A stretch of DNA of 64,000 nucleotides from a virus (taxonomy: Duplodnaviria > Heunggongvirae > Uroviricota > Caudoviricetes): the IMG/VR virus record IMGVR_UViG_3300028832_000101, positions 49,380-113,379 of that record. One strand, given 5' to 3'. This document shows, in pieces, positions 1 to 64,000 of the stretch (positions are counted from its first letter, which is position 1; every line of letters begins with the position of its first letter). The notes beneath the pieces are model-generated. The model saw only the letters and a program-made list of their open reading frames with translations. It was not told the DNA's origin and ran no database searches. The position numbers and the translations under genes are program-made.

Positions 1-56
1 TTTGTTAATTAAATTTTATAATATTTTTTTATAATAATCAATTACTATTCTTTAAA

Positions 57-85
57 TTGACATTATTAAAAATTTTTGTTATAAT
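57..85 (+). promoter_or_regulatory. sigma70-like promoter TTGACA-N17-TATAAT upstream of first early gene
   Basis: ttgaca at 57-62, 17 nt spacer, tataat at 80-85. Confidence 0.5.
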
Positions 86-211
86 CGCGTGCGTTCCTTA
101 TTATATATATGTTTTTTATTAAAAAATATTATAATGTTGACAAAAGAAAATATTTATTTTAATTTATATATAAGATGATATTCATAAATATTTCTAAAAT
201 ATTATCTTTAT

Positions 212-240
212 TTGATAAAAAATTAAAAATATTATATAAT
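212..240 (+). promoter_or_regulatory. sigma70-like promoter TTGATA-N17-TATAAT
   Basis: ttgata 212-217, 17 nt spacer, tataat 235-240; a third weaker candidate (ttgaca 137-142) lies between. Confidence 0.5.
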
Positions 241-297
241 ATAAATATAAAATTATATATTGCAAAAAACTTTTGCTAGAGAGGAGAAGGGACAAGA

Positions 298-1684: not shown

Positions 1685-2218
1685 ATGAAAATGAATAGAA
1701 AAATAATTAAACTATATACTGATGGGGCATGTAGCGGAAATCCTGGCATAGGTGGTTGGAGTTGTGTTAACTATGATGCTAAGAATAATACTATATGGGA
1801 TGCATATACAGGTCAAGATGATTGGGATAAACCTGAAACCACTAATAATAGAATGGAATTAAAAGGATTAATACAAGCATTAAAACTAGCCACTACAAAA
1901 TATAAAGATTGTGATGTTCTTATATATTGTGATAGTTCATATGTAGTTAATACTTTTAATGAATGGATTAGAACCTGGGCCCGCAATAACTGGATTAATA
2001 GTTCAAAAGAACAAGTTAAAAATTTAGATTTAATGAAACAAATATATGATTATGCTATTGTTGAATTTCCAAATTATGGAGTATATAAAGTAGCAGGTCA
2101 TAATAATGAAATAGGAAATGAATTAGCAGATGCTTATGCTGTTGCGGCAAAAAATAGTGATGCAACAAAATTAGCCAAAATTTTAAAAGAAAATAATATT
2201 ACTCTAGCCATAGAGTAA
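1685..2218 (+). CDS. ribonuclease H
   Basis: YTDGACSGNPGIGGW, NNRMELKGLIQAL and DSSYVVN motifs typical of RNase HI. Confidence 0.75.
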   Translation: MKMNRKIIKLYTDGACSGNPGIGGWSCVNYDAKNNTIWDAYTGQDDWDKPETTNNRMELKGLIQALKLATTKYKDCDVLIYCDSSYVVNTFNEWIRTWARNNWINSSKEQVKNLDLMKQIYDYAIVEFPNYGVYKVAGHNNEIGNELADAYAVAAKNSDATKLAKILKENNITLAIE

Positions 2219-2284: not shown

Positions 2285-4204
2285 ATGACTGATAAAAACA
2301 CTTATACAGAAACATCGATTGAATCATTGTCACCTCTTGAATTTACTCGTCTTAAACCAGGAGTATATGCTGGTGATACAACTTATTCAACTCAATTATT
2401 AGTTGAAATTGTATCTAATGCTGTTGATGAATTCAGATTAGGACATGGTTCTACGATTGATGTAACTATTATCAATAAAGATAAAGATACATTAATAAAA
2501 GTTAGAGATTATGGTCAAGGATTTATTCCTAATTCTTTTAGGGATGATGGTAAGACTATACTTGAAGCTGCATTTAGTGTACTTAATACATCTGGTAAAT
2601 ATCGTGAAGATGGTACTTATCAAGGAACATCATTAGGTTCTTTTGGTATTGGTTCAAAAATTACAACATTCTTATCACATTATCTAGAAGTAACAACTTA
2701 TAGAGATGGTAAGTATGAATACATTAAATTTGATGAAGGTGAATTTAAAGAAAGAAAAGAAGGAACATATACTGATAAAACTCTAACAGGTACAGAAGTT
2801 ATATGGACTCCAAGTGAACAATTCTTTACTCACACATCAGTAGAAGAATCTAAGATAAAAGATTTATTTAATACTATTACTTGTCTATGTCCTGGATTAA
2901 CTATCAATTTAGATATAGATGGACAAAAAATTAAATATATATCTGAAAATGGTATTAATGATTTAGTTGATGAAGCAGTAAGAGGAAAAGAAATTATCAC
3001 TAATAGATTTAACTTAAAATATGAAGAAGGAAAAGAAAAATTAGATATGGTATTAACATATACATCTAATTATTCTTTAAATTTAATTCCTTATGTTAAC
3101 ACAGGTTTAACAGAAAAAGGACCTCATATTACACAAGTTAAAACAGTTATCACAAGAGAATTTAATAAATTCTTTAAAGATAAGAAATGGCTAAAAGATA
3201 AAGAAGAAAATTTAACAGGTGATGATATCCAAGAAGGTATGTATATAGTATTTAACTTAACAGCCTCTAATGTGGCATATGATGCACAAGTTAAATCAAC
3301 AGTAACAAAATTAGATATGAGTAATTTTGCTAATGTTATTGCTACAAATCTTCAATATTGGTTAGCTAATAATGAAAAAGAAATTAAAGTAATCTTTGAT
3401 AAAGCGGCAGCAGCTCGTAAAGCAAGAGAAGCCGCAAAATCTGCAAGAGAAAGAGTTAGAGAAAATAATAAGAAAAAAGAAAAGGCTCTTAAATTTGATA
3501 GTAAATTAGCAGATTGTTATTCAAAAGATAGAAGTAAATGTGAAATATATATTACAGAGGGTGATTCAGCTTCTGGAAACTTAAAGTCAGCTAGAAATAA
3601 TGAGTTCCAAGCGGTAATGCCTATTCGTGGTAAAATATTAAACACACAAAAAGCAAGTTTAGATAAAATACAAAAGAATGCAGAAATTATGACAATGATT
3701 GATGCTTTTGGATTATATATTGATACTAAAACTATGCAAGTTACTTATAATAAAGATAGTTTAAGATATGGTAAAATTATAATTGAATCAGATGCCGATG
3801 TTGATGGCGCCCATATTAAGAACTTATTCTATACTTTTATATGGAACTTCTGTCCTCAATTAATTGAAGATGGATATGTATATGCAGGTGTTCCACCATT
3901 ATATAAAGTTACAATAGGAAAAGAATATAAATATATTAAAAATGATGAAGAACTAGAAGCATTTAAAAAGACAATAGGCGATAAAAAAATAACTGTTAAT
4001 CGTATGAAAGGTTTAGGCGAAATGTCTGTTGACGAAACAGAAGAAACATTAACCGATCCTGATAATAGAATTATCAAACAAATAACAGTTGAAGATGCGG
4101 AAGCCGCAGATAAATTATTTAATGATTTAATGGGTACTGGTGTTGTCGCAAGAAAAGATTTTATAAAAGAACATAGTAAGGAGGCTACATATAATGCAGA
4201 ATAA
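2285..4204 (+). CDS. type IIA topoisomerase ATPase subunit (GyrB/ParE/T4 gp39-like)
   Basis: GHKL ATPase N-terminus; EGDSASGNLKSARN...QAVMPIRGKILNTQKA toprim motif. Confidence 0.85.
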   Translation: MTDKNTYTETSIESLSPLEFTRLKPGVYAGDTTYSTQLLVEIVSNAVDEFRLGHGSTIDVTIINKDKDTLIKVRDYGQGFIPNSFRDDGKTILEAAFSVLNTSGKYREDGTYQGTSLGSFGIGSKITTFLSHYLEVTTYRDGKYEYIKFDEGEFKERKEGTYTDKTLTGTEVIWTPSEQFFTHTSVEESKIKDLFNTITCLCPGLTINLDIDGQKIKYISENGINDLVDEAVRGKEIITNRFNLKYEEGKEKLDMVLTYTSNYSLNLIPYVNTGLTEKGPHITQVKTVITREFNKFFKDKKWLKDKEENLTGDDIQEGMYIVFNLTASNVAYDAQVKSTVTKLDMSNFANVIATNLQYWLANNEKEIKVIFDKAAAARKAREAAKSARERVRENNKKKEKALKFDSKLADCYSKDRSKCEIYITEGDSASGNLKSARNNEFQAVMPIRGKILNTQKASLDKIQKNAEIMTMIDAFGLYIDTKTMQVTYNKDSLRYGKIIIESDADVDGAHIKNLFYTFIWNFCPQLIEDGYVYAGVPPLYKVTIGKEYKYIKNDEELEAFKKTIGDKKITVNRMKGLGEMSVDETEETLTDPDNRIIKQITVEDAEAADKLFNDLMGTGVVARKDFIKEHSKEATYNAE

Positions 4205-6515
4205 TGATATTTTAAATGAGTTAAGTACAAACTTTATTGAATATGCTGTTGCGGTTAACACAGATCGTGCTATTCCAGATGCAACTTCTGGGTTAAAACC
4301 AGTAGCCCGTAGATTACTATGGGGAGCTTTTGAAAGAGGCTATACATCAAGTAAACCTCATGTTAAGTCTGCAAAAATAGTTGGAGATGTAATGGGTACT
4401 TACCATCCACATGGTGATTCATCTATTTATGGAGCTCTTGTAAGATTATCTCAACCTTGGGTTATGAGATACCCACTTATAGATTGGCATGGTTCTAATG
4501 GTAATATTGATGGCGATGGTCCTGCAGCGATGCGTTATACAGAATCTAGACTATCAAAATTAGCAGAAGATGGTATGTTAAAAGGAATTAAGAAAAGAAA
4601 TGTAGATTTTATTCCTAACTACTCTGAAGACTGTGAAGAACCAGTTACATTACCTGCTATATTCCCTAACTTATTATGTAATCCAAACACTGGTATTGGT
4701 GTAGCTATGGCTTGTAATTTTGCTCCACATAATTTATGTGAAGTAGCTCAAGCTATATATGATTACATTGATGGTAAAGAACCTATGTTACCAGGTCCAG
4801 ATTTTCCAACAGGTGGATTAATTATTAATATGAATGATATTCCAAATATTATGAAAACAGGACATGGTAGTGTAAAAGTTAGAGCTAAATATAATGTAGA
4901 AAAACAAAATATAGTATATTATGAAATTCCATATGGAACTTCTACTGAAGCACTTATTGCGGAAATCGGTGAAGTAGCTGAAAATGATATTCCTGATATT
5001 ATAAATATTAGAAATGAAAGTAATAAAAAAGGTTTAAGAATTGTTGTTGAGTGCGCAAAAGGAGCTAATCCAGATGCAATAGCAGGTAAATTATTTGCAA
5101 AAACTAATTTACAAAGTAGTTTTTCATATAATCAAGTTGCTTTAATAAATAAAACTCCAACAGAAGTTAACTTAAAAGATTGTATTAAATTATATTTAGA
5201 CCATAATGTAAATTGTTTAATTAAGGAAACTGAATTTGATTTACATGCTGCGGAAGCCCGCCTTGAAATTGTTGAAGGTTTATTAAGAGCATTAGAAGAT
5301 ATTGATAATATTATTGCATTTATTAAAAAATCTGAATCTAGTGCTGCCGCAAAAGAAGGTTTAATTAAAGAATATAAATTTACTGAACCTCAAGCTAAGT
5401 CTATTGTAGCTATGAGATTAGGTTCTCTTGCTAAATTAGAAAAAGTAGAATTAAATGAAGAAAAAAATGGTTTAGTAAAAGATATAGAAGAATTTAATAA
5501 AATTTTATCTTCTAATGAATTACAAGTTAATATAATAAAAGAAAGATTAGAAGAATTAGTTAAAAAATATGGTGATAAAAGAAGAACTGAATTAGCTCAA
5601 ATTGAAATCCCAAAAGAAGATAAAGAAATTGTTGCAGTAATTCCTGAAGATGTTGTTGTAATGGTATCTCAAACAGGTGATGTTAAGCGTATTCCTAAAT
5701 CTAACTTCAGAGCGCAAAGAAGAGGCGGAAAAGGAATTAAGTCAGAGGAAGAAGCAATTTTAACTACAATTAAAACTAATACTATTGATAATTTATTAGT
5801 ATTTACTAATAAAGGAAAAATGTATAAAATATTAGTAGATAAACTTCCTGTTGGAACAAATGCTTCAAAAGGACAAAATGTTGCTAGTTTAGTTACTATG
5901 GATACAGATGAGAAAGTAATAGCCGCTGCAAGTTTAGATAGAGATACTGATGCTGAATATGTAGTATTTGTGACTAAACAAGGTCTATTTAAGAAAACAT
6001 TGCTAAGTGAATATAAGAGTATTAAAAAATCTACTGGAACTCAAGCGATTAAATTAAAAGATGGCGACAGTATATCTAATGTAGTGTTTATGAAAGATGA
6101 AGAATTTATGATATTTACTAAATTAGGTATGGCTATTAGATTTACTACTACTGATATTAATCCAATAGGTAGAGTAACTAGTGGAGTAAAAGGTATTAAC
6201 TTAATTGATGGAGACGAAGTTATAAGTAGTTTTGCTATTACTGATAAGAGTAAAAATATAGCAATTATAGGTAAAAATGGTTATGGAAAGAAAAGTAGTT
6301 TAGATGAGTTCTCTTCTCAAGGTCGAGGAGGTAAAGGACTTAAACTTGGATCTGAAATAGCTGGTGCCGCATTAATAAATGATGAAGATAATTTATTATT
6401 ATTAGGTAAACCTAATAGTATATGTATATCATGTGCGGAAATGCCTGTTCAAGGTAGAGCTACTCTAGGTGTTAAGCTAGCACAAAACGAAATTAAAAAT
6501 GTTGTTATTGTGTAA
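4194..6515 (+). CDS. type IIA topoisomerase DNA breakage-reunion subunit (GyrA/ParC-like)
   Basis: 773 aa; GyrA-like N-terminal region (VARRLLWGAFERG), immediately follows B subunit with 4-codon overlap. Confidence 0.85.
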   Translation: MQNNDILNELSTNFIEYAVAVNTDRAIPDATSGLKPVARRLLWGAFERGYTSSKPHVKSAKIVGDVMGTYHPHGDSSIYGALVRLSQPWVMRYPLIDWHGSNGNIDGDGPAAMRYTESRLSKLAEDGMLKGIKKRNVDFIPNYSEDCEEPVTLPAIFPNLLCNPNTGIGVAMACNFAPHNLCEVAQAIYDYIDGKEPMLPGPDFPTGGLIINMNDIPNIMKTGHGSVKVRAKYNVEKQNIVYYEIPYGTSTEALIAEIGEVAENDIPDIINIRNESNKKGLRIVVECAKGANPDAIAGKLFAKTNLQSSFSYNQVALINKTPTEVNLKDCIKLYLDHNVNCLIKETEFDLHAAEARLEIVEGLLRALEDIDNIIAFIKKSESSAAAKEGLIKEYKFTEPQAKSIVAMRLGSLAKLEKVELNEEKNGLVKDIEEFNKILSSNELQVNIIKERLEELVKKYGDKRRTELAQIEIPKEDKEIVAVIPEDVVVMVSQTGDVKRIPKSNFRAQRRGGKGIKSEEEAILTTIKTNTIDNLLVFTNKGKMYKILVDKLPVGTNASKGQNVASLVTMDTDEKVIAAASLDRDTDAEYVVFVTKQGLFKKTLLSEYKSIKKSTGTQAIKLKDGDSISNVVFMKDEEFMIFTKLGMAIRFTTTDINPIGRVTSGVKGINLIDGDEVISSFAITDKSKNIAIIGKNGYGKKSSLDEFSSQGRGGKGLKLGSEIAGAALINDEDNLLLLGKPNSICISCAEMPVQGRATLGVKLAQNEIKNVVIV

Positions 6516-6611: not shown

Positions 6612-8531
6612 ATAGATAATAATTTAAGTGAAATAAGACAATTAATAGATAAATTAAATTATTATACTAAATTATATGATGAAGGTCATCCTGAGATTTC
6701 TGATATAGAATGGGATAATTTATATTTTAAATTACAAAAATTAGAAAATCAATATCATACATATTGTGAAGATAGTCCTACTCAAAAAGTTAATTTTCAA
6801 GTAGTAAATAAACTAAATAAAGTAGAACATAATCACCCTATGCTTTCTTTGGATAAAACAAAAGATATGGATGTAATTAAATCTTTTATAGCAGGAAAAG
6901 AATTTATATGTATGGCAAAAATGGACGGGTTGACTTGTTCATTAACATATCAAAATGGACAACTAGTTGCCGCAGAAACTCGCGGAAATGGAATTGTCGG
7001 AGAAGATATTTTACATAATGCTTTACAAGTAAAAAACATTCCTAATAAAATTGATTTTAAAGATAAATTAGTTGTAGATGGAGAAATAATATGCACATAT
7101 AGTGATTTTGAACCATTTGCAGAAGAATATAAAAATCCTAGAAATTTTGCATCTGGTAGTATAAGATTATTAGATAGTAAAGAAAGTTCTAATAGAAGAT
7201 TATCTTTTGTTGCTTGGGATTGTATTGAAGGATATAATGATAAATATTACTTAAGCACAAAATTAGCGTGGTTAAATCTATTAGGATTTACTATCGTCCC
7301 TTGTTTTGCTTATGGTATTCCATATACCACAGTTCATTTTGATGAAGATATAGAAGAATTAAAAAATAGAAGTAAAAGATTAGGGTATCCAATAGATGGC
7401 TTAGTATTTAAATATGATAATTGTGATGAATATAATACCGCAGGTAGAACTGACCATCATTTTAAAGGCGGAATAGCATATAAATTTTATGATGAAGAAT
7501 ATGAAACAACTCTTCAAGATATAGAATGGAGTATTGGAAGAACAGGAATTCTTACTCCTGTTGCTATATTTGACCCTGTGGATATAGATGGAACTGAAGT
7601 TTCAAGAGCAAGTTTACATAATGTAAGTGTTATGACAGAAATATTAGGACAACCTTACAAAGGACAAAAGATAAAAGTATTTAAAGCAAATATGATTATT
7701 CCTCAAATCTCTTGGGCTGAAATTAAACCACTTACTATATCTACATTCAGATGTGAAAAATGTCCATTATGTGGAGAAAGAACCGTTCTTAAAAATAATG
7801 ATGGAGTTATGACATTATATTGTAGTAATCCAGATTGCGAAGGAAAGTTAATAAACCGTTTAGACCACTTTTGTGGTAAAAAAGGTTTAGATATAAAAGG
7901 GCTCTCAAAGGCAACTCTCGAGAAACTTATTGACTGGAGTTGGATTTCTAGTTATATGGATATATATAATTTAGAAAACTTCTCAAACGAATGGAAAAAC
8001 AAAACTGGCTTTGGTGAAAAATCAGTAGAGAGGATCTTGAGCGCCCTTGAACAAAGTAAAAATACAACATTAGATAAAGTAATTGCGGCAGCAGGTATTC
8101 CATTAATTGGAACGAGAGTCGCAAAAGATTTATCTCAATACTATTCTTCATGGGAAGACTTTAGAAAAGAAACAAATTTTGAGAAATATGATGGTATTGG
8201 ACCTGAAATGAATAACTCATTATTAAACTTTGATTATACTGAAATAGATAAAGTAATTCCTTATTTGAATATATCTGCAACAAATAATAATAAAGACAAT
8301 ACATTGCAAGATAAAGTTTTTTGTATAACAGGCAAATTACATATATGGAAGAATAGAGATGAATTAATTAAAAGTATTGAATCTATGGGCGGAAGAGTAG
8401 TAGGCTCTATGAGTAGTAAAGTTGACTATTTAGTTAATAATGATATTAATTCAACTTCTGCAAAAAATAATGCGGCTAAACAAGCAGGTATTCCAATTAT
8501 AACAGAAGAAGAATTGCAATCTATGATTTAA
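6612..8531 (+). CDS. ligA: NAD-dependent DNA ligase
   Basis: LigA adenylation region, four-Cys zinc finger (CEKCPLCG...CSNPDC), HhH and BRCT-like C-terminus; ATG at 6612 with RBS aaggaaaggagg (track start 6543 is an in-frame extension). Confidence 0.8.
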   Translation: MDNNLSEIRQLIDKLNYYTKLYDEGHPEISDIEWDNLYFKLQKLENQYHTYCEDSPTQKVNFQVVNKLNKVEHNHPMLSLDKTKDMDVIKSFIAGKEFICMAKMDGLTCSLTYQNGQLVAAETRGNGIVGEDILHNALQVKNIPNKIDFKDKLVVDGEIICTYSDFEPFAEEYKNPRNFASGSIRLLDSKESSNRRLSFVAWDCIEGYNDKYYLSTKLAWLNLLGFTIVPCFAYGIPYTTVHFDEDIEELKNRSKRLGYPIDGLVFKYDNCDEYNTAGRTDHHFKGGIAYKFYDEEYETTLQDIEWSIGRTGILTPVAIFDPVDIDGTEVSRASLHNVSVMTEILGQPYKGQKIKVFKANMIIPQISWAEIKPLTISTFRCEKCPLCGERTVLKNNDGVMTLYCSNPDCEGKLINRLDHFCGKKGLDIKGLSKATLEKLIDWSWISSYMDIYNLENFSNEWKNKTGFGEKSVERILSALEQSKNTTLDKVIAAAGIPLIGTRVAKDLSQYYSSWEDFRKETNFEKYDGIGPEMNNSLLNFDYTEIDKVIPYLNISATNNNKDNTLQDKVFCITGKLHIWKNRDELIKSIESMGGRVVGSMSSKVDYLVNNDINSTSAKNNAAKQAGIPIITEEELQSMI

Positions 8532-9159: not shown

Positions 9160-10086
9160 ATGAGAATTTTATTTTTATTAATAGGTATTATTGGTGTTAT
9201 TTTATGTATAATAGCATTTTTAAGAATAAAAGATACTAATGATAATAATAAAAAAATAGAAGAAGAAAATAAAAAATTATTAAAAGATAAAGAGATTATA
9301 GAAAAAGAAATAAAACTTTTAATTTTACAAAAAGAATATACACAAGAAGATTTGAATAAAATTAAAAATCTAACTTCTGATATGAATAAAGGCGCTTATG
9401 AAGCATTCTCTCAATACTGTGATACTTTAGATACAGAATATAATGTTATCGAACAAGAGTATGATAACACGACGAATGAATTAAAAACTGCATATGATAA
9501 CTTGCAAGATACATTAATGAGCAAGATAGAGATTGTGCAAAAAGAATTGGATAAAATTTCCGCAACCCGTGCCGCCGCATTAGAAGCTCAATTAAAAGAA
9601 CAAGAGGTAAAGAATAAACAATCTTTCTATTGTCCTCAAATTCCTGAAGATGAGTTAAGAGATGCTAAGACATTAAAAGATATAGAATATAAATTGAACA
9701 ATCCAAGAGTATTAAGAATGCTTATATGGCAAACTTATTATCAAAAGCCAATGAACCAAGTATGTGCAAATGTATTAGGTGCGGCAACCGCAGATATATG
9801 TGGTATATATAAAATTACCAACCAATTAAATGATTTAGTATATATAGGTCAAGCTGTTGATATGTCAACTCGTTGGAAAAATCATGCTAAAGCTGGATTA
9901 GGAATAGATACCCCGCAAGGAAATAAATTATATAAAGCAATGAAAGAAGATGGATTAGAGAATTTCTCTTTTGAATTATTAGAAAAATGTAAAAGAGAAG
10001 AATTAGATGAGAAAGAAAAATATTATATTTCTTTATATCAATCTGACCAATTTGGATATAATTCTAATTCAGGAATTAGTAAATAG
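9160..10086 (+). CDS. membrane-anchored coiled-coil protein with C-terminal GIY-YIG nuclease domain
   Basis: N-terminal hydrophobic helix ILFLLIGIIGVILCIIAFL; GIYKITNQLNDLVYIGQ...R..NH motif. Confidence 0.65.
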   Translation: MRILFLLIGIIGVILCIIAFLRIKDTNDNNKKIEEENKKLLKDKEIIEKEIKLLILQKEYTQEDLNKIKNLTSDMNKGAYEAFSQYCDTLDTEYNVIEQEYDNTTNELKTAYDNLQDTLMSKIEIVQKELDKISATRAAALEAQLKEQEVKNKQSFYCPQIPEDELRDAKTLKDIEYKLNNPRVLRMLIWQTYYQKPMNQVCANVLGAATADICGIYKITNQLNDLVYIGQAVDMSTRWKNHAKAGLGIDTPQGNKLYKAMKEDGLENFSFELLEKCKREELDEKEKYYISLYQSDQFGYNSNSGISK

Positions 10087-11230: not shown

Positions 11231-12256
11231 ATGGCTATAGATTTATTAAATTTACAACCTCATAAAGTTAGCCGCGATTTACGTGGATATTCAGTATTCT
11301 TTTATGGAGAGCCAAAAAGTGGTAAAACAACTACTGCCGCACATTTCCCAGAAGCATTACTTTTAGCATTTGAAAAAGGTTATAATGCTATTCCAGGAAT
11401 TATGGCACAACCAATTAATAAATGGTCTGAATTTAAACAAACTTTAAGAGAATTAGAAAAACCTGAAATTAAAGAAAAATTTTCAACTATAATTATAGAT
11501 ACTGCCGACATTGCTTATGACTATTGTACTAAGTATATATGTGATAATGCTAAGCGTCCTGATGGCGGATTTGGTGTTGATTCAATAAGTGATATTGGAT
11601 ATGGTAAAGGTTATGGTATGGTTAGTCAAGAATTTGACGATAGTTTAAGAAAAATTGTTCAAATGGACTATGGTCTAGTATTAATTAGTCATGCTACTGA
11701 TAAAACATTTACTAATGAAAATGGAGCTGAATACAATCAAATCGTTCCAACATTAGATAAAAGAGCTACTAATATAGTTTCTCGTATGGCAGATATTATT
11801 GGATATTCAAGAGTAGTTACAACTGATGAAGGCGACAAAACAATGCTATTCATGAGAGGTACTAACAGATATATGGCTGGATCAAGATTTAAATATACTC
11901 CAGATTATATTGAATTTAATTATAAAAATCTTACTGATGCTATTGCAAACGCAATTGATGAACAAGCAAAAGAAGATGGTGGTCAATATTTCACAGAAGA
12001 AAGAAGCAATTTATATGTTTCAAAAGAAGAAGAATTAGATTTTGACCAATTAATGAATGAATTCCAAGACTGCGTAAATAGAATGATAAAAGACGCTGGT
12101 GAAAGTTTTGAAGAAAAGTATTCACCTAGAATTACTCAAATCACTGAAAAATATTTAGGTAGAGGAAATAAAGTAAGTCAATGTTCAAGAGAACAAGTTG
12201 AGGCTTTATCATTAATAGTAGCAGATTTAAAAGAATTAGAAAAACAAGCTATTTAA
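11231..12256 (+). CDS. RecA-family / Sak4-like (AAA_24) recombination ATPase
   Basis: Walker A FFYGEPKSGKTT. Confidence 0.7.
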   Translation: MAIDLLNLQPHKVSRDLRGYSVFFYGEPKSGKTTTAAHFPEALLLAFEKGYNAIPGIMAQPINKWSEFKQTLRELEKPEIKEKFSTIIIDTADIAYDYCTKYICDNAKRPDGGFGVDSISDIGYGKGYGMVSQEFDDSLRKIVQMDYGLVLISHATDKTFTNENGAEYNQIVPTLDKRATNIVSRMADIIGYSRVVTTDEGDKTMLFMRGTNRYMAGSRFKYTPDYIEFNYKNLTDAIANAIDEQAKEDGGQYFTEERSNLYVSKEEELDFDQLMNEFQDCVNRMIKDAGESFEEKYSPRITQITEKYLGRGNKVSQCSREQVEALSLIVADLKELEKQAI

Positions 12257-12313: not shown

Positions 12314-12350
12314 ATATATGAAGAAAAAAGTATAGTTTGGAGGTGCGGCA

Positions 12351-14391: not shown

Positions 14392-14408
14392 GAAAGGAGG
14401 ATGCGGCG

Positions 14409-19090: not shown

Positions 19091-19154
19091 GAGCGGAAAC
19101 CGCGGTTATGAATAATAGCCTCGGTTTTTAACCGTTATAGAGAGGAGATTGATT

Positions 19155-44139: not shown

Positions 44140-44171
44140 ATTATCTCTCCTTTTATATCTTGCGGCGGCCG

Positions 44172-44765
44172 CTATTTATTTTCTTTATGATTTTCGTCTA
44201 TTGCTTGGTAAATATGTGGTGGAACTATAATATCATGTGCTTTAGCCCATTTATTAAATTCACTAGTCATATACCAATCTCCATGCAAACTTACAAAATA
44301 TGTTTCAGCAAGTTTTAAAATTGTATCTATATTTTCAGGTTGTTGTTCTAAAATCATTAATAATTGAATTCTTAAAGTGTCTTTTCTAGTCTCTTGTGCA
44401 TTTTCAATTAAAAATTTTACATCATCTTTAAACATATCAATACGTTTATCAGAATCTTCTTTGTTTTGTTTTACGATTTCTCTTGTCTCTTGAAGAGCTT
44501 TAGTGAAATCTTCTCTTGCTTTATGTTCATATTTAATTATTTCTGCATGAGTATATTTAGCTTGTTTATCAACATAAAAAGAAACAAGTAATAAAACTAT
44601 TCCTAGAAATGCAAAAATACTATATGTTAATTCTGGAGAAGTATTTAAAACTTTGACTACAAAAGTCGCAGAAACTCCAACAGCGGCAAGTACTCCTGCA
44701 ACTCTTGCCCATATTGTTTTTATATCATTTCAAGGAGTTTTTATTTTTTCATCTTCGTTGTTCAT
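44172..44765 (-). CDS. putative holin-like membrane protein, 197 aa, two TM helices
   Basis: N-terminal hydrophobic segments VAGVLAAVGVSATFVV and IFAFLGIVLLLVSFYV; RBS ggaggagg; one in-frame TGA. Confidence 0.45.
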
Positions 44766-48444: not shown

Positions 48445-51400
48445 CTATAATGATGATGATGCTTTTGTATATTCTAATACTATAAATATTTTATCAAAGG
48501 TGTCTGTAAAAGTAGTTACAGAAGTTCCTAGATTAATATATATTTTAAGATTATCTATATCAAAAGAACATTTATCTCTTGTAGAATTATAATATCCTAA
48601 TTTAGCATATCCAACAGGAAGGTCTTCTTCAGCTGGATATCTTAAATATGAATGAGTATAATCTATAAAAATCATATCTGCCCCAAGATTTGATATATCA
48701 ACCTCATTATTTGAAGATGTAATAATATCGTTTGGATCATATTCAACACATATTCTATAAATAGGTTTTCCATCAATTCATATTTTATTAGTTAAAGTTT
48801 CAGTAGTAGAGAATACATCTGGTTCACTACCTCCACCACCACTTGCAGAAGATACTTCATTTGGATTAATCCATAAAATTGCGTTTCCAGTTGGTTGAGT
48901 AGTAGATATTGAAATTTCATTATTGTCAGATGCAGCAATATGTAAAGAATTTGCTGTTCTTGTTATATAATACATTTCATTGCGTTTTGTTGTATTATTA
49001 AATATATATGCAAGAGCAGGTTTATTTAAAATCATATTATCTCAATCCCCTATAATCAAAGAGTTTGCAGGGAATGTAAAAGTTGTAGATTGAGAAGTTT
49101 GTGTATCTGTATAAGTAATTGTTATTGGAGATTTTACTATTGTAGCAGAAGAATTAAATAATTGTTCATTATTAGTTACAGAATCAACTACATTTATTCT
49201 AAGATTTAAATCTATGGCGTCTACAGGGGATTCATCTGTAAATATAGTAGTATTTGTAACATTTGAACCATTATATGTGAACATTTTATATCCATAATCA
49301 CTAACTACAATAAATGTTATATAAGGTTCATCTGGATCTGCAGTAAAATTATAACAACAAATTGCAGATTTTGCTCCAAAATCTATATATCTAGAATCTC
49401 CAACTCTTATGCGGAAGCTTGCGCCTCCACCTCCGACAACATAATAATGAATTCCTCTAGGAAAATCTACAGGTCCATAAGCACCATTAATAGTTTCAAA
49501 AAGAATTCCATCTGTATTAGAAATAACATTATTTGCATCTATATTGATTCCAGTACCAGCAGTATAACTAATATCTCCAAGTTCAATTTTGTTTTTAGTT
49601 ATAGTTCCAGTTACCCAAGTTGTAGGATCATTTCCTGATAAAATAAATTCATAATAATAAGTATCTCCAGCAGTCTCATTTAAAATTCCTAAATTTCCAA
49701 TAATAGTAAATACCATTTTGTCTGTCGTATCTCCTGAAGCCTCTCCATGAGAATAAGGTACATAATAATTTTCTGACTTTTGTAAAGTAGTATTTATATT
49801 CGAATATTGTAAATATAATTGTTCATTCATACTAGCAGATTGTAACGAAGCTAAATTAGAATAAACTGTTCCTTTATTATCAGTTGCATTTATAGTAAAA
49901 GTTCCATTAACAGCATCTATAGATAAAATTGGCATAAAAATTGCTTCATCTTTATGTGTACTAGTTGTCTTTGTATAAGTTTTTGTACTACTTGCCACAG
50001 TTAAATTTACAGAAGTAAAGACATCTTGCCCTACACTTGGAGCCTGATATGGTAAAGTAGTTGAAAATATTGCAGTGTTATTTGTACTTATATTTAATAA
50101 AGGAATATATAAAAATACATTTGTACTTTTTTGTCATTTACCAATAACTTGGTATCCTTGAGAAACTAATGTAGCAATTTCTGTTCCAGTATAATTAGTT
50201 GCATTATTACTATCTAAAGTAACAATAGCAGTAGGTTTAATATCATAATCAGTTCCGAAATCAGCTTGAGTCATTGCGGAAGCCGCAGTTACATGACCTT
50301 CTGCATTAGTAGTTATTTTATATAAATCACTTGTAAATGCACTACCTTTTGCAGTTGCATGGTCATATGCAATTTTACCTCTATCTCCACGATATGCAGT
50401 TGATTCAGTTTCTCCTAAAGCCAAATCTGAAGCTACTACAACATATATAGAACCTGACCATCTATAAGATTTATTAGTAGATAAATCTACATATATTTTA
50501 CCTGATTCTGGAGTAATCTCTGTTGTATAAGTAGATTCTTTATAGAATTTACCATCTGTTAAATTATAATAACCTTCAATAATATCATCTACATAAGCAG
50601 GTAATTGCGAGCTAGGAACCTTTCCAGAACTATCAAGAGTAGCAATTCCATTAGCTTGACCTAATTTTGCATTGTCTGCAGGAGTAAAACCTAATGCAGC
50701 AATTATTGAATTTGAGCTTACTTCATTCCAATATTCATATTCTAAACTATCTTTTGATAAATAATAAATTTTATTATAGTCGCCAACGGAAAATAATAAA
50801 TTTGCTATTCCCATATTACCATAATCTGTATTTAAAAAATTATAAGTCATATAACCTAATTTATCAGTTTTTAAGAAAGCTCCATTTTTTAATATACAAG
50901 TTGCCTCTCCATCAAAACCATCAAATTCAGGTAAAGCAATTCTATCTTTCCATTCTTGGAAAATATAATTACTATTATTTTCAATATAACTCTTTATAGG
51001 TAAAGTATTATCTTTATAGAAAGTGAATTTATTTATTGTTCCAAAAATAGTTGTACCTGGACAATATTCTCCCCAAGAGTCTTCATACTCTAAAAAATTA
51101 ATACCTCTTACATCAATATTTACATTACAAACATCTGGATAAACATAATATGTTTTAATTTTATCTGGGTCAAAAATAATAATTTCATTATCTTCATTAT
51201 CACCATCTTTATAAGTTTCAGAATTTCCATTACTATCAATGACAGTCCATCCACTATTTGATAAATTTAAAATTGCATAACTATTAGCAGGGATTGCATA
51301 AATAGGAACAACTACATCAGTTCCATAGCTTGTCTTTCCTTTAAATAACCAAAAACGAGTAATATTTTGTCTACCTTCATAAACAAAAGTAATTCCTCAT

Positions 51401-54484: not shown

Positions 54485-55276
54485 CTATGCTGTCCTTTTC
54501 CACATGTATACTCCGATACATGGTTGTAAGTTTCCTGAAGTTCCAGCTCCAGTAGATCCAGAAGTTCCTGTAAAAGTATGAGTGTGCGCAAAAGTATGAG
54601 TATGTGCTTCTATTGAATGTGTATGAGCACTTCCATGACTATGACTTGCGCTATGATGGTGACTGTATGAATGTCCATGATTTGCACTATGTGAGTGTCC
54701 CATCGCATATCTTATTTTTCTCCAAGAGTTACTTGATGTACCACTTGTTTTAAATTGATGGTAATCCGCAAAAGTAAACCAAATTCTTGAAGAACTATGT
54801 GAACCTTTTTGCGAACAGAAAAATCTTGTTGGAGAAGCAGCATCACCAGCTAATTCAGTACTACTTGTTGCTGAACTGTTTCCTGATGATGTACTTGAAT
54901 TTCCAGTATGTTCAGTCGTAGAACTTGAATTAAATGCATCTTTATTTGCTATTCCCATATCACCTGTGAGTGTCTCTGCAGCAGCCTCACTTGAAGTTGC
55001 AGAAATACTATGAGTATGGTCTTGTATATCTAAGGAACCGCCTTGTTCATTTGCGGCAATAGTTTTTGTTTTACTTTGCCCATCAGTTCCAGTCCCAACT
55101 CCCATTAATACTCTTCCAGTACTAAATACTTCTCAAGTACCACCAAAAATATCTCCTGGATTAGTTGAATTAGTTGATATATAAATAGAACCAATAGGAT
55201 AAATACTATCTACGAAATGCGCTTTTCCCGCAATTCTTAAATCTCCTTTTACTATTAAATCTTTAAAAAATGCCAT
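54485..55276 (-). CDS. His-rich collar-domain tail protein paralog 2 (263 aa)
   Basis: MAFFKDLIVKGD...YPIGSIYISTNSTNPGDIFGGT; GHSHSANHGHSYSHHHSASHSHGSAHTHSIEAHTHTFAHTHT; ends LQPCIGVYMWKRTA. Confidence 0.65.
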
Positions 55277-55292
55277 ATAAACCCCCTCTTTC

Positions 55293-56123
55293 CTAAGCCG
55301 TTCTCTTCCACATATATACACCTTGATAAGGTTGTAAATTATTTGCTGTGGTTTGGTATGTAATTGAAGGATGACCTGTAGAGCCTGAAATGGTATGACT
55401 ATGCGCGGCAATAGTATGGCTATGAGAGAATGTATGACTATGTGCAGCAACACTATGTGTATGTTCAGGAATTCTATGGTAATGACTAGGTACTGTATGA
55501 GAATGGGAAGGTAAACTATGATTATGAGACATATTAATATGCATATTTGCCCAACCATTTGTTGATGAACCACTGTCTTTAAATCTTCGATTACTACTCC
55601 ACTTAACAGCCGCTCTATCTCCACTGTTACTATAATAACACATATTATTACTTAAGTTATTTTGATGAGTCATGAAGATATTTCTTTGGTGGTCACCACT
55701 ATTACCACCTGCTCCAGACCAATTACCTGTTCCACCTGAAGTTCCGCCAGTATTCCCACTAGTTCCTCCACCAGTTAAGCCTTCAGTATTATCACCTGTA
55801 TTACCTGTCGTAGTTGAAGTAGTTGTATTATTTGCGGAAGTCATTGCCGCAAAACTATGAGTGTGTGTACCTATATTATAACTACCCCCTGTTGTTCCTC
55901 CAGTAAATGTTTTTGTAACACTATCTTTATCTGTATAACTACCTGCACCGATCAAAGAACGACCTTGTCCAAATGCTTCTCAAGTTCCTCCAAAAAGTTG
56001 ACTTGGATTTGTAGAGGCAGTAGACATATATATAGAACCTATTGGATACATACTTTCCAAAACGTTTATTTTTCCTATAAATCTGGCGTCTCCGCTGACA
56101 AATAAATCTTTTAAAATCGCCAT
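55293..56123 (-). CDS. His-rich collar-domain tail protein paralog 3 (276 aa)
   Basis: MAILKDLFVSGD...YPIGSIYMSTASTNP; HNHSLPSHSHTVPSHYHRIPEHTHSVAAHSHTFSHSHTIAAHSHT; ends LQPYQGVYMWKRTA. Confidence 0.65.
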
Positions 56124-57906: not shown

Positions 57907-57951
57907 AAACCGCACAGTAGAAGTTAACGAATTAATCTACTGTGCGGTTTA
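57907..57951 (-). terminator. strong intrinsic terminator accgcacagtaga...tctactgtgcggt + TTTTTTGTTTTT on minus strand
   Basis: 13 bp GC-containing stem; sits inside the leader of gene 57419-57877. Confidence 0.65.
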
Positions 57952-58809: not shown

Positions 58810-58811
58810 AA

Positions 58812-60590
58812 TTATTCCTCCTTAAATTCATATGCATACATATTATTTGCGTTATCTACAAAACCGGCAGTGTCATATAATTGTTTTACATCTGCGGCAG
58901 ATAATGCAGTTGCATATATACGGAAGTCAGATAAACTACCATAATTTTTTGTATTTCAGCCTGTTCCTGTATAAGTGTTTCCAATTGAATTATTTAATAA
59001 TGGAATAGTAGTATCTGTATAAGTATTTTTTGTTAAAGTTTGTTCAACTCCATTTAAATATCATTTTGCCGTTCCTTTATTAAATACATATACTGCATGA
59101 TATCAAGTTCCTGCTGTTAATAATGAACCTCCTGCAGTATATTTACTTCTATAAGCTCATAATCCACAACCTTCACAATTTGTTGCTATTCATAAACCAG
59201 CCCCGGCAGGATTGTTATAAGGAGACATTATGCAACAATAACCACCATTTGAAGCATTGGGTTTTACTCAAAAAGAAATAGTTAATTCAGCCATATCAGG
59301 TATAGATAAATCAGTTTTTAAACCATCAATTCCTGTTGCACAGCTACTTCCCCCATTATATCTTGGTGCGGTAGAGTCAAAATTCAACGTTCCAACTTTT
59401 GTAGCATTATATCCATTTCCGCTTACATCAGTAAGTATCATATTATCAAAACCTAATTTAGAATACATAACATCACTTGAATTTGGTATTCAATCTGTTG
59501 CAACCTCTCCAATTTCAATTTTAGGATGTCTATACTTTATTGTTCCAGTAGTATCTCTCATAAAGAAACTTACATTTAAACCAGCTATATCATAATTTGT
59601 AACAGTTACAGTACAACTATATTTTACTCATCCAGTTGTAACTGCTGTAGGGATAGTTTTTCCGCCATATCAATCTAATCACTGATTGCTTCCCCCTGTT
59701 GTAGTATTTCTTGTAACAGACAGTTCAAAACCAACTCAAGGATTTGTAGTACCAAAGGTAAGTGCTTCTGTAATTTTATATTCCATAGAAAAAGTCAATT
59801 TTTTATTTTTAAAATCAGTTAATCCTGCAGTATCCATTGTTTGTGAAAAACTTATTCCAGATGCTTGAAGAGTATCAGAATGAAAAGTTACTTCATCTCC
59901 ATCAAAAGTATAAATTCCTGCATTAGTTTTATTAGACCAATCACTATTTTTAATATAATTTTTACCAGCTCCCATCTCCTCCAATTTATAATGACAAACC
60001 AATCCCTTTGAAATTTCTTTTATTTGTTTACGAGATAGGCATTCATCATATACACGTAAATCATTCATTACTCCTGTAATGATATTATTATTTTCTCCTA
60101 TATGAAAATCGGTAATTAAATACCCGCCTAATCCAGTATCTGTGTATAATAGACTTCCATCTACATAGGTGTAGAGATTTGCACCATTATAACTTACACA
60201 ACAATGATGTCAAGTTCCTTTTTGGCTTTCTTCAATTAATACTCTTGTCGCCTGCGTAACCCCAAAAGGTGAATTATTATGAAAACTACATGCTCTTGTA
60301 GATTGTGTTGCTTCAAATCTAAATTGAGCAGCAGCAGTTCCATCTGCTTGTTTACAAGTAAATCCAAGAGAATCGGCTCAATCTGATGTACAGCTATCTA
60401 CTTTTAATCAAAAACATATTGTGAAATTATCTAACCTAGATAAATTAGTAAAAGTAATTCTAGGAGATAAACTTAAACCCTTTCCGATTTTTCCTCCATT
60501 AGAATATGTAGGAGTTCCTGATACTGATAAAAAATCTATACCTTGATTTTTTAAGTTACCATTAAGAGGCAACCATACTCGTAAAGCCAT
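58812..60590 (-). CDS. tandem LamG/concanavalin-A-like lectin domain protein, about 592 aa
   Basis: MALRVWLPLNGN..., MNDLRVYDECLSRKQIKEI and C-terminal LSDFRIYATALSAADVKQLY are LamG hallmark motifs; track ORFs 59736-60068 and 60408-60590 joined by TGA. Confidence 0.6.
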
Positions 60591-60601
60591 ATGATTACCT
60601 C

Positions 60602-63600
60602 CTAACTAAAGATAAATTCAATACATTTATCTGTTGAATTATATTGAACTGTTGCGGCAGATGTTAATCCAATCTTACCATTTCCAGTTGTTATTTTATT
60701 TGGGAAACTTGTATTTCCACTTGCGTCTAATAATGTAGCAGTTCTGGTTATTGTAGCAAAAACACCACTATATTGTCTAACATAAATAGGTTCATTACTA
60801 TCGTCTGCAGTAGCAATTTCTAACCAACCTGCATTAGCGGCAGTTGCTCCTGCGGCAATTCTACCATAATCATTATCCCCAGCTTTAAATTGAACTTGTC
60901 TAGTGCTTGTTCCACTATTGGCAAATAGTAAATCACCTGTCATAGTGTCTCCAGCTTTTAATACATAATCACTACCGCCACCTCCGCCAGTAGGAGCATA
61001 AATTTTTGTAGATGTGCCATTAATCTTAATAGTACCTATTTCAGTTCCTTCTGTTAAAGTTTGAGTAAATGAAGTAGTACCTGTATTTAAAATTGTTCCA
61101 CCTGTTGTTGGGAATGTATGAGTAGATTCAGCAGTGGCAGACGCTGTTGCTTTTACTGTCGCAAATCCAGCCTTTTCTGCATATATTCTAATTTCGCCAT
61201 ATTTATTTCCTGCAGTTTCTGTCGCAGTAGCATTTCCTAAAGAAAGAATTGATCTACCTGCAGCACTTGCAGTACCTTGTAAAGAATAATATCTTAAACC
61301 ATCATTAGCATTAACTCCATTGGTACCAGATGTAGCTGTATACCATGTAGGGTAATACCAAGTACCTGTTGTTGGATTAGTATTTGAAATAGTTACTTTA
61401 TTATTAGTATCTGTATAAACTCTTGTAGTCCAATTTCCCCAAGTTCCATTAGTACAATATCTTACATAAGAATTGTTTGGGTTATTTGCATTTGTAAAAA
61501 TTTGTCTTGTTATATAATCTGAAGTACTAGCTCATCTAATTACATCAACATCTAATAAGAAAGGTTTACCTGTAACCGGGATATTAGTTATATTATTAGA
61601 GCCCCCATCAGTTTTTTCAATATAATGCATACTATTAGGACTTCCCGCAGATAAGTTTAAAGTATTAATATCTAAAGTTTGACTTGAAATATCAATTCTA
61701 TCATAACCTTTTGCATAGAAAGCTCCTGTACTTGGATTTGCAGTAAAATTAACTGATTTATTTGAACCAGCAGTTTCAGTAGTATCATTAGCTGAATTAG
61801 ATAATAATAATCTATAAGCTGAAGCTGTTGTACTATTTGTTTGAGTTACTTTATTATTTGTATCAGTATAACAACTACTAGGAATTGTTCCACTTAACTT
61901 TGTAGCATCTAGTGTACTACTAGCAGTTAATGGAGTAATTGTATTACTTCCAAGAGTAATAACCCCACTAGCAATTTTCGCATCTGTAATTCCATAACCA
62001 CTTAAAGTTGTTGGATTAGTTCCCGCAGTAACGTGTCCTGTTGCATTAACAGTTACACTTCTATATGTTCCCGCGGTTACACCTGAATTGGCATGTGATA
62101 AAGTTCTAGTTCCACTAGTTGTAATTGCGGAAGTACTATCAATAGCAATAGGTGAAGTCGCTTTAATTGTGACACTCGTTACAGTTCCACTAGGTTCATC
62201 ACCTGAAGGAATTAATACCCAAGTATTAGCACTTGAAGTTTTTGAATCACATACAAATGTATCTCCAATTTTTGCAGCTTGGCTTGCATAAGTACCTGCA
62301 GTGATAACTTTATAAGTATCACCAACTGATGCACTACCATCAACAGGTAATGCAGTAATAGTACCATTTGTACCTAAACTACCTTTAAATACCATTGGAT
62401 CTGGTAAATTATCAATAGCAGTTTGAACAAAGGCAGTTGTTGCAATTTGTGTGGTATTTGTTCCTGCAGTAGCTGTTGGTGCAGTAGGAATACCATTAGA
62501 AATTCCAATTGCTTCTTTATATGTATTACTTACTGTATTACCTAAACTTAATTTAGCATTTGCATCATCAGTAGTACTGAATGTTGTAACACCAACATCT
62601 GCAGTAGTTGCCGAATAATCTACTTTAAATCCATCTGTAGAACCTGTTACTGTAAATAAATTTGTACTAGCTATTGTTCCACTTGAAGCAAGAGCACGAG
62701 TAATAGCACCTGTCATTGCTCCACCAGATTTTTTAAGATAAGTAGAATTAATTGCATTCCCATCACTATCATTAGTAGCTTTACCTGCACTAGTCGCATA
62801 AGGGACTGTAATTGATTGTGCATTTCCACTACTTGGCGTTAAAGTTATTTTATTATTAGTTGTATCTGCAGCTAAAGTATAAGTAGTATTATTATCTGTT
62901 CATGGAATATTAACTGATAATTTTCCATTTTTATCTAATCCTACTGCATATTGTTTATTTGCAGTAGAACCCATATCTACGGCTTCAAGAGTAGATTTAG
63001 TCTCACTCTTTAAATTTGCTTTAATTGTACCTGTTGTAGTAACATCTCCACCTGTTAAACCTGCTCCAGTAGAAACTTTAGTTACAGTACCTGTATTAGT
63101 TGTATAACCTTTACCTTCAACAAAAGAAGCAACCGCTTGAGATGTAGGTAAATTAGTACTTGTACTAGCTGCGGAAATTGAAGTATCTACAGCTTTAGCA
63201 CTTGCAGCCGCTAAAGTATATCCATTATAAGTTTTATTTGTTAATGCTTGTGTATCACTTAAATTAACAACTTGTTTACTATTACTATAAACATGTCCAT
63301 CAGTTCCAACATAAGCAGTATCTTGTGAATAAGTTTGTGGATTAGCTGCTTGAGATTTGGCTCCTACGATAAAAATTTTATCTGAAGTATCTGTTGAACC
63401 TGCAGTATTTTTTGTATCACTATTATTATCAGTAGAATGACTCATCCAAACCCAATATGTACCATCATACATATAATAAAGAATTCTGTTCGCATAACCA
63501 TAAGCAGTTGTATTAGTGCCTGTATTTCCAGCTCCACTATGAGTATTATTATACCAAATATTTTTAGCTCCTGTACTATTTACATTTAATGTTATAGGAC

Positions 63601-64000
63601 TATCAGTTGTAGAACTATAAGTGTTTGTATTTGTAAATTTAACTCCTACAATAGTACCTTTAGCTAATTCCCAACCTGTTGTATCTGCTAAAGTAACTTC
63701 TTTATTTCTTGTATCTGCAGCAGTACTACAAATACCATAGAATGCTCTACGATTGTTTGTATCGCTTCCAGGAATTCCTAAAGCAGTGATATCCGCTTTT
63801 GCAACAGCAGTAACTGACTTAATATGTCCTTCTGCAGTTGTTGCAATTTTATATAATCCGCTATCTGCGGCAGTTGTTAATCTATTACTATCAGTTGCAT
63901 GAGTATAGGCAGTATTTCCATAATCACCTCTATAAGCAGTTGTAGATGAAGTTCCTAAAGCTAAATTACTTGTTCCTGCACCTATATTAGTACGGGCATT
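60602..64000 (-). CDS. giant Thr/Ser/Gly/Asn-rich tail fibre protein, at least 1133 aa, 5' end beyond window
   Basis: track ORFs 60602-60943, 61532-62716, 62900-63472 one frame joined by TGA; C-terminal YVLKAGDTMTGDLLF tail-fibre repeat motif; stop TAG 60602-04 inside RBS of next gene. Confidence 0.5.

Follow-up and report, generated by a model that had tools for sequence, protein, structure and literature searches.

Apart from Chi, hardly any words are known to be over-represented throughout a phage genome. Among cellular genomes, the very-short-patch (VSP) repair of Escherichia coli (Dcm/Vsr) enriches CCWGG and lowers CTWGG, and the naturally competent, Gram-negative Pasteurellaceae and Neisseria accumulate their uptake signal sequences (USS) and DNA uptake sequences (DUS), words of 9-12 bp with defined flanks, via uptake and recombination. 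The uptake-critical inner core of the USS of Haemophilus influenzae is GCGG (PMC3458573). The same four bases form the 3' core of the experimentally defined Chi signals AGCGG of Bacillus subtilis and GAAGCGG of Staphylococcus aureus, and the headful phage P1 carries Chi on both strands, with 31 of 50 copies on the top strand (bioRxiv 10.1101/2021.07.08.451572). Enrichment of phages in the Chi of their host has been documented as well (PMC12315714). Here we analyse a stretch of 64,000 nucleotides (the window; positions 49,380 to 113,379 of the IMG/VR record IMGVR_UViG_3300028832_000101) from a 137-kb SPbeta-like phage, in which the tetranucleotide CCGC/GCGG is over-represented in both orientations. 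This enrichment extends over a whole phage lineage and comes with inverted composites of fixed spacing, and it constitutes a variant of the over-represented genomic DNA words. In the literature on CCGC/GCGG over-representation in phages nothing relevant was found.

The most conspicuous manifestation of the enrichment is the heptamer TGCSGCA, of which an earlier note on this DNA had claimed more than 25 copies in an AT-rich genome where base composition predicts about one. Indeed, the window has a GC content of 29% and holds 27 copies, whereas in 100 dinucleotide-preserving shuffles the mean was 1.14 and the highest count 5, which rules out base or dinucleotide composition as the cause. The 22 coordinates given earlier all lie within 10 bp of a true site; the list was correct but incomplete, with further copies at 2143, 8084, 35544, 55052 and 60851. 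We also performed synonymous shuffles in which each protein and the codon usage were kept, in a pooled and in a within-gene version. These left only 4.9-5.6 copies (z 12-14), and codon usage together with protein sequence is therefore ruled out as well, in agreement with the earlier suggestion that codon preference alone does not suffice. An excess of CTGCAG (the PstI site) under a Markov model was discarded as a candidate, as it is accounted for by codon structure (37 vs 32).

Nevertheless, the heptamer is not the unit of the signal. The same shuffles identified CCGC/GCGG as the top tetranucleotide of the coding DNA by a wide margin, with 165 sites vs 64.5 expected (z 15.4), whereas all other NCGN words stay at 0.36-1.2 of expectation. 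Pooled over both orientations, the excess is about 2.6-fold; taken separately, sense-strand GCGG exceeds expectation about 2-fold and CCGC 4-5-fold. It is distributed over the reading frames: the observed and expected numbers are 9/3.9, 48/12.1 and 16/1.5 for CCGC and 52/29.6 and 39/17.2 for GCGG. In the last of the CCGC frames, xxC-CGC, the flanks are free positions, which implies that the whole word is favoured and not a single base step. The 2,394 nt of intergenic DNA contain 15 sites vs 1.2 expected, some of them in terminator stems and two in spacers between a Shine-Dalgarno sequence and an ATG, and the early and the late genes are each enriched. TGCSGCA is this word written into Ala-Ala pairs, as GCC-GCA on one strand and GCG-GCA on the other, with third positions that are mostly T or A. 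Accordingly, 24 of the 25 genic copies read xxT GCS GCA, in line with the claim that most copies encode Ala-Ala; as had also been noted, one copy lies in another frame (TGC GGC, Cys-Gly, at 20902) and one is non-coding (12344), between a Shine-Dalgarno sequence and an ATG. The first codon is GCG or GCC in 51 of the 92 Ala-Ala pairs (55%) vs 97 of the 910 Ala codons before other residues (11%). Outside Ala-Ala, GCSGC in the NGC-SGC frames occurs 13 times vs 2 expected, and before Ala the codons TCC, CCC and ACC are over-used. The rare codons GCG, GCC and NCC thus serve mainly where the word CCGC/GCGG results.

Little is added by the sequence around the word. CCGCA, CCGCC and CCGCG each exceed expectation about 5-fold and CCGCT about 2-fold, so that CCGCV/BGCGG is modestly favoured in addition. 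Of the 53 GCS-GCN pairs, 36 have GCA as their second codon (background 0.47, p = 0.003), and the T and A flanks are mostly due to third codon positions rich in T or A and to the frequent use of GCA. A longer motif was rejected, since the 7-mers and 8-mers follow from the 4-mer and the codon structure. Within the window the sites show no bias in position within genes, local GC richness has no effect, no structured RNA or tRNA was found that could give rise to them, and any regularity of spacing or helical phasing is at most marginal (the per-strand coefficient of variation of 0.83 is at the edge of the random range).

The earlier note had stressed a palindromic, orientation-independent core. 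The palindromy proved incidental: when oriented, 26 of the 27 copies read TGCGGCAR, so that the motif is not truly symmetric, and the non-palindromic TGCGGAA is present in 21 copies next to the 27 of TGCGGCA. The symmetric look arises because either strand of an Ala-Ala pair (GCN-GCN) may hold the word, and the pair then reads GCG-GCN or GCC-GCN. A purely translational origin, in which ribosome or tRNA effects favour GCS before GCN, could be suspected from the single frame that holds nearly all genic heptamers. Moreover, the counts of codon pairs alone predict 18.2 of the 24 in-frame copies. The earlier note had proposed a codon-pair-preserving control as the decisive one, and its outcome indeed comes close to the observed number; the comparison does not discriminate, however, because a tetranucleotide bias that acts in all frames and in non-coding DNA itself generates a codon-pair bias. 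Preference for codon pairs is refuted by the enrichment of CCGC/GCGG in the two remaining frames, in antisense and in non-coding DNA. In addition, both GCG and GCC are used despite their different wobble decoding, and related phages from other Firmicutes lack the enrichment (see below). We therefore assign this explanation hardly any probability. The idea of a DNA-level signal has thus held up, as the word is found in all frames, in both orientations and in non-coding DNA, but TGCSGCA or YTGCSGCAA as its unit has not. The excess is a property of the DNA that is specific to the word and to the clade, and is not a product of translation or composition. More generally, what looks like an odd use of codon pairs can be the reflection of a DNA word, and a heptamer seen by eye can mask a simpler unit.

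To put the window in perspective, we compared it with seven related loci (L002-L008) and, as controls, with SPbeta (L015, 84417-134416), the Clostridium botulinum phage c-st (L019, 1-50000), the Enterococcus phage EF1, a Staphylococcus SPbeta-like phage and a distant IMG/VR relative (L021). The relatives have a DnaE that is 55-92% identical (63-79% for the seven analysed loci) and reside on contigs binned into animal-gut metagenome-assembled genomes, the labels of which are inconsistent (Bacilli, Clostridia, Erysipelotrichaceae). A search with GyrA yielded more than 120 clusters (identity 72-99%), of which many lie on contigs of 120-150 kb, and the best 120 of the 8,000 matches that were scored all resemble phage relatives. 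Judged from these sequence matches, the lineage is one of large, uncultured, very abundant and diverse phages. In all seven loci CCGC/GCGG ranks first or second among the enriched tetranucleotides, in both orientations, and the part of the phage beyond the window shows the same enrichment. In L004-L006 the preferred flanks move to CGCGG and GCGCG; for comparison, the Chi signal of Lactococcus lactis is GCGCGTG. The enrichment is absent in all five controls. In these controls the same method reproduced known biology, such as a depletion of ACTA and TACTA in SPbeta.

Although the density of the sites is kept within the lineage, their positions are not. In conserved Ala-Ala pairs, a first codon that ends in S in the window only weakly predicts such a codon in a relative (0.55 vs 0.38, not significant), and a comparison with a 96.5%-identical genome already showed 31 shared sites, 7 that are found only in the window and 5 only in the relative. 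Conservation of individual positions was therefore rejected, as sites are gained and lost quickly.

The controls also bear on restriction. Several of them avoid GATC or other sites completely, c-st has no copy of GCNGC in 50 kb, and GATC has nearly disappeared from L004 (1 vs 44) and L021 (0 vs 47). In the coding DNA of the window GATC is present 47 times vs 100 (0.45 of the synonymous expectation) and CCGG, ACGT and TCGA are reduced to 0.37, 0.35 and 0.38, respectively, which looks like ordinary restriction-site avoidance. CCGC/GCGG resembles these targets in being a short, restriction-type word of abnormal frequency, but its deviation has the opposite sign. It could still be a by-product of avoidance if enzymes similar to TseI/ApeKI or BbvI acted against GCWGC and pushed Ala-Ala from GCW-GCN to GCS-GCN. 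Relative to the synonymous shuffles GCWGC is indeed reduced (55 vs 88-91, z about -10), GCSGC gains a similar number (77 vs 26-30), GCA-GCN falls to 14 vs 41 expected, and the avoidance in related phages such as c-st can be drastic. However, 55 sites are left, a ratio of only 0.6 where true avoidance in the controls reaches 0-2%. Moreover, the depletion is strand-asymmetric (GCA-GCN 0.34 vs GCT-GCN 0.79), which is unlike the behaviour of a duplex target, and CCGC is equally enriched where GCWGC is no alternative (TCC-GCN, NGC-CGC, GCG-GAA and intergenic DNA). Avoidance of GCWGC is hence largely refuted and we consider it very improbable as the source of the heptamer. The asymmetry is related to a separate effect on the sense strand, where nnA-GCn is strongly avoided across the codon boundary: AGC occurs 404 times vs 512, and CAGC in this frame 55 times vs 128 (0.43), whereas the complementary GCTG is spared (0.9). 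It is this avoidance that further removes GCA-GCN. Its restriction to the sense strand suggests a cause at the level of the mRNA, for instance an endoribonuclease site or an effect on decoding.

A second layer of organization is provided by pairs of the word. The inverted composite GCGG-N3-CCGC is present in 9 copies, where 0.18 are expected from the number of sites (Poisson 5e-13) and the synonymous shuffles give a mean of 0.10, and the reverse order CCGC-N3-GCGG does not occur in the window. The copies are found in three reading frames and in intergenic DNA. CCGCGG adds 6 copies and GCGGCCGC adds 2, at 41294 and 44165, one fewer than reported before. As single-stranded DNA the N3 composites fold with -3.7 to -4.9 kcal/mol; the window shows no excess of single sites with an imperfect hairpin (3/4 matches, offset 7). 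Seven copies of GCGG-N3-CCGC are present in the 24 kb of L002, and the composite in NrdG is kept through different codons, CGC GGC AGC CGC in the window and CGC GGT TCC CGC in L002.

Such an arrangement would be expected if GCGG were the half-site of a dimeric protein that binds duplex DNA, encoded by phage or host, such as a protein that coats the genome or resembles histones, a regulator, or an enzyme that methylates or otherwise modifies DNA. The inverted pairs of fixed spacing would then be the high-affinity sites, and the single words low-affinity sites that mark or organise the phage DNA. The independence of orientation and frame, the enrichment of inverted but not of direct composites and the conservation of the NrdG composite all agree with this explanation. 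CCGC, CCGCGG, GCSGC and GCGGCCGC are, furthermore, classic recognition sequences of restriction-modification systems, and phages of the SPbeta family carry multispecific C5-methyltransferases (mtbP is annotated in L015). Nonetheless, only 18 of the 212 sites are part of N3 composites, odd and even symmetry occur side by side among the composites, which one dimer geometry does not explain, the sites turn over fast, and the targets of restriction-modification are normally depleted, as GCNGC in c-st and GATC in the window. Neither a methyltransferase or Vsr gene nor an obvious gene for a sequence-specific DNA-binding protein was found in the ~79 kb inspected (the window, L017 and the upstream part of L022). 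We therefore consider a dimeric binding protein unlikely. The modification motif envisaged in the earlier note finds no partner in these ~79 kb, and nothing that points to a packaging signal, its other proposal, was seen.

Taken as a whole, the data probably reflect weak selection (or drive) at the level of the DNA for the density of a short duplex word. As the word is favoured whatever the frame and strand and forms inverted composites of fixed spacing, its reader should act on DNA, and the rapid gain and loss of sites at constant density is the behaviour of weak selection (or drive) on density and not that of conserved functional positions. A mutation or repair bias, or biased gene conversion, could produce part of this picture without any function if CCGC/GCGG were a mutational sink or were shielded from the GC-to-AT pressure by a polymerase, glycosylase or mismatch-repair activity of the clade or its hosts. 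The effect is genome-wide, free of frame and strand and without conserved positions, features that it has in common with the precedent, VSP repair, which acts on a short methylation-type word. Moreover, it is confined to a clade with a common replisome (DnaE identity of 63-79% among its members and 39% to SPbeta). However, the transition neighbours of the word are not depleted (CTGC/GCAG 0.99, GTGG/CCAC 1.00), on which ground an origin by VSP-type repair was rejected, and the enrichment of 2.6- to 5-fold is much stronger than that of CCWGG. Furthermore, the word is enriched in frames that leave different positions of the tetramer and its flanks free, a context bias of 4 bp does not predict a fixed N3 inverted spacing, and the replacements that would be needed most often (A to C, T to G) are of the kinds that usually arise least. 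On the other hand, terminator stems supply part of the intergenic excess, which weakens the case for selection in general. A context-dependent bias, compatible as it is with much of the data, seems to us quite unlikely.

As to the identity of the reader, we tentatively favour a Chi-like signal for a host nuclease of the AddAB type that is used in both orientations. By analogy, the AddAB/RexAB-type helicase-nuclease of the host would enter the phage DNA at any double-strand end, would come upon GCGG in the right orientation within some hundreds of bases, and would there change from degradation to the loading of RecA. Both orientations would be needed everywhere if the ends were not fixed, as with headful permuted packaging or with internal breaks made by restriction or CRISPR. 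The likeness to Chi lies in the over-representation of a short, GC-rich word in a phage genome, in the density that is kept rather than the position, in the shared 3' core and the precedent of P1, and in flanks that differ among related phages, as Chi differs among hosts.

Several observations nevertheless weigh against a Chi-like reader. A strand polarity is lacking: GCGG and CCGC are found 109 and 103 times on the plus strand, and both orientations are enriched in every relative, whereas AGCGG in the SPbeta control has a ratio of 21:2. A core of 4 bp would be shorter than that of any Chi we know of. The variant AGCGG is the least favoured by its flank, the phage has recombination genes of its own (Sak4-like and RecJ-like), and a Chi function does not predict the fixed N3 spacing of the composites. 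Chi-rich lambdoid phages, too, are biased in orientation (20:3 and 32:0; PMC12315714). A possible, if doubtful, variant is an analogue of Chi that is free of orientation and tames an end-processing nuclease of the host, or a phage factor that tells phage from host DNA for protection, replication or the loading of recombination proteins.

The distribution of the word is also reminiscent of USS and DUS, which are likewise independent of orientation, evenly spread, located in genes in several frames and subject to positional turnover, and which form inverted pairs, some in terminator stems. In the phage, by comparison, specificity is limited to the 4-bp core, with flanks set by the codon structure; the USS flanks (AAGT...T) are not present around the GCGG sites of the window, and the carrier is probably a virulent phage of uncultured, AT-rich gut Firmicutes. 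We take the match to the core of the H. influenzae USS as a resemblance only. If an orientation-free analogue of Chi or a phage factor of the kind mentioned above does read the word, an abundant TGA-recoded lineage of large, AT-rich gut phages writes a 4-bp 'self' word about every 300 bp into its DNA, in both orientations and with inverted composites in addition, which would represent a new class of genome-wide phage DNA signal. Over-represented words in phages reveal a machine of the host that has to be satisfied or evaded. Since the signal is common to a very large uncultured lineage and absent from its cultured relatives, it can be used as a marker of lineage or host range, and CCGC/GCGG gives experiments such as methylome sequencing, AddAB assays or DNA pull-downs something concrete to start from. 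The individual features are collected in Table 1.

Table 1. Coordinates of the CCGC/GCGG word, its inverted composites and the TGCSGCA heptamers in the window
Feature	Position	Strand	Context
CCGC/GCGG, genome-wide	1..64000		212 sites; + strand 109 GCGG, 103 CCGC; even, 21-35 per 8 kb
GCGG-AAG-CCGC	4097..4107		GyrB, GCG GAA GCC GCA
GCGG-CAA-CCGC	9781..9791		GCG GCA ACC GCA
GCGG-AAA-CCGC overlapping CCGCGG, intergenic	19093..19105		directly 3' of the stop codon of open reading frame (ORF) 18842-19090
GCGG-TTG-CCGC	22708..22718		DnaE
GCGG-CAG-CCGC, other frame	27340..27350		NrdG, CGC GGC AGC CGC = RGSR
GCGG-AAG-CCGC	31899..31909		flotillin gene
GCGG-CAA-CCGC	41798..41808		late ORF
GCGG-CGG-CCGC, intergenic	44162..44172		includes GCGGCCGC at 44165
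GCGG-AAG-CCGC	50276..50286		1209-aa late ORF
CCGCGG	21219..21224		further copies at 19100, 25984, 30089, 30869, 62071
GCGGCCGC	41294..41301		second copy at 44165
TGCGGCA	2143..2149	+	GTT GCG GCA (Ala-Ala), RNase H gene
TGCCGCA	5345..5351	-	GCT GCC GCA (Ala-Ala), GyrA
TGCCGCA	6365..6371	-	GGT GCC GCA, GyrA
TGCCGCA	6968..6974	-	GTT GCC GCA, NAD-dependent ligase
TGCGGCA	8084..8090	+	ATT GCG GCA GCA, ligase
TGCGGCA	9780..9786	+	GGT GCG GCA, GIY-YIG ORF; left arm of palindrome 9781
TGCCGCA	11335..11341	-	ACT GCC GCA, Sak4-like ATPase gene
TGCGGCA, non-coding	12344..12350	+	GGAGG-TGCGGCA-ATG spacer 5' of yorH-like gene
TGCGGCA	13515..13521	+	AGT GCG GCA, DnaB-like helicase
TGCGGCG, non-coding, no TGCSGCA match	14402..14408	+	AGGAGGA-TGCGGCG-ATG spacer 5' of primase gene; architecture as at 12344
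TGCCGCA	15762..15768	-	TCT GCC GCA, RecJ-like exonuclease
TGCGGCA	16893..16899	+	ATT GCG GCA, RecJ-like exonuclease
TGCCGCA	17759..17765	-	ATT GCC GCA, superfamily 1 (SF1) helicase
TGCGGCA	18782..18788	+	ACT GCG GCA, SF1 helicase
TGCGGCA, other frame	20902..20908	+	GAA TGC GGC AGT (Cys-Gly), DnaE
TGCCGCA	22713..22719	-	GTT GCC GCA, DnaE; right arm of palindrome 22708
TGCGGCA	23631..23637	+	AAT GCG GCA, DnaE
TGCCGCA	31580..31586	-	GTT GCC GCA, flotillin/Band 7 gene
TGCCGCA	32672..32678	-	TTT GCC GCA, flotillin/Band 7 gene
TGCGGCA	35544..35550	+	CGT GCG GCA, ORF 35347-35718
TGCCGCA on + strand	35860..35866	-	ATT GCG GCA, minus-strand late ORF 35836-38697
TGCGGCA	41797..41803	+	GTT GCC GCA, minus-strand TGA-containing ORF 41152-42819; arm of palindrome 41798
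TGCGGCA	55052..55058	+	ATT GCC GCA, minus-strand ORF 54485-55624
TGCCGCA on + strand	55845..55851	-	TTT GCG GCA, minus-strand ORF 55293-55955 (code 11 call)
TGCGGCA	58893..58899	+	gene ambiguous: code 11 and code 4 ORF calls differ
TGCGGCA	60653..60659	+	TCT GCC GCA, minus-strand ORF 60602-64000
TGCGGCA	60851..60857	+	ATT GCC GCA, minus-strand ORF 60602-64000
TGCGGCA	63866..63872	+	ACT GCC GCA, minus-strand ORF 60602-64000
Intrinsic-terminator-like hairpin	57908..57950	-	stem base CCGC...GCGG, then T-run; holds two intergenic sites

The window is part of a metagenomic contig of 137,249 bp (ENA ERZ27256849), and the identical phage is also represented by a permuted JGI contig of 136,118 bp. A search of IMG/VR for the rest of the genome gave only a relative of 53% identity. 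The assignment to the SPbeta-like phages is based on Pfam matches to YorF and YorH, on a gene order as in SPBc2 (tested as YorF-YorG(Sak4)-YorH-YorI(DnaB)-YorJ-YorK(RecJ)-YorL(DnaE)) and on a DnaE that is 39% identical to YorL. More specifically, the plus strand between 0.3 and 35 kb encodes a replication module of the SPbeta type, with YorF, a Sak4-like ATPase, YorH, a DnaB-like helicase, a primase, a RecJ-like exonuclease, an SF1 helicase and a DnaE-type polymerase. In addition, it encodes GyrB and GyrA, an NAD-dependent ligase, RNase H, NrdD and NrdG, a dUTPase, a peptide deformylase, a flotillin-like protein and a cluster of Stealth and glycosyltransferase genes. The minus strand carries the late genes between 36 and 64 kb. 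The genes for GyrB, GyrA and the NAD-dependent DNA ligase lie at 2285-8531; to our knowledge SPbeta has none of the three.

From 24572 to 64000 TGA is read as sense, which comprises NrdD (24572-26908), NrdG (26901-27392), the glycosyltransferase cluster and the late half (35836-64000). The coverage by ORFs rises from 0.82 to 0.97 once TGA is read in this way. The late ORFs, of 555-1209 aa, contain 1-14 in-frame TGA codons each, and the replication genes at 298-24496 contain none; DnaE, for example, has 18 TGG codons and no in-frame TGA. With TGA as Trp, NrdD becomes one continuous match to Pfam NRDD (2-562 of 562) and NrdG a full match to Fer4_12. A suppressor tRNA was not found in the window. 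Recoding of TGA to sense has been described for the Agate-type gut phages (bioRxiv 10.1101/2021.08.26.457843), and judging by its sequence the window fits that published pattern. Between the genes of nucleotide metabolism and the late genes (27335-35148) lie those for enzymes of the polysaccharide type, namely a Stealth CR2/CR4 protein and a family 2 and a group 1 glycosyltransferase, each with in-frame TGA; their target may be the host surface or DNA.

Some minor observations were made along the way. The neighbouring yorH-like and primase genes (12339-12353 and 14395-14411) have a common start, GGAGG(A)-TGCGGC(A/G)-ATG, which could be a shared translational operator or merely represent two further copies of the word. 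The gene with the highest density of CCGC/GCGG in the window is ORF 9160-10086, with 6.5 sites per kb. Its product has a C-terminal GIY-YIG domain (residues 214-301) preceded by an N-terminal part of 210 residues without assignment, an architecture that is the reverse of that of typical GIY-YIG homing endonucleases. A second word that is enriched in coding DNA is TGACCA/TGGTCA, with 12 copies vs 2.6 expected (TGACC 20 vs 7.1). Both the GC skew and the AT skew flip sign at about 36 kb, where the early genes on the plus strand meet the late genes on the minus strand in convergent transcription; as the flip coincides with this switch, it is not by itself evidence of a replication origin or terminus. 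Finally, in two independent ENA assemblies (137,249 and 141,575 bp) the contig stops 5.6-5.9 kb upstream of gyrB, and the identical JGI contig breaks at about position 56890 of the window. These contig ends could reflect a repeat or variable region, or defined versus permuted termini.

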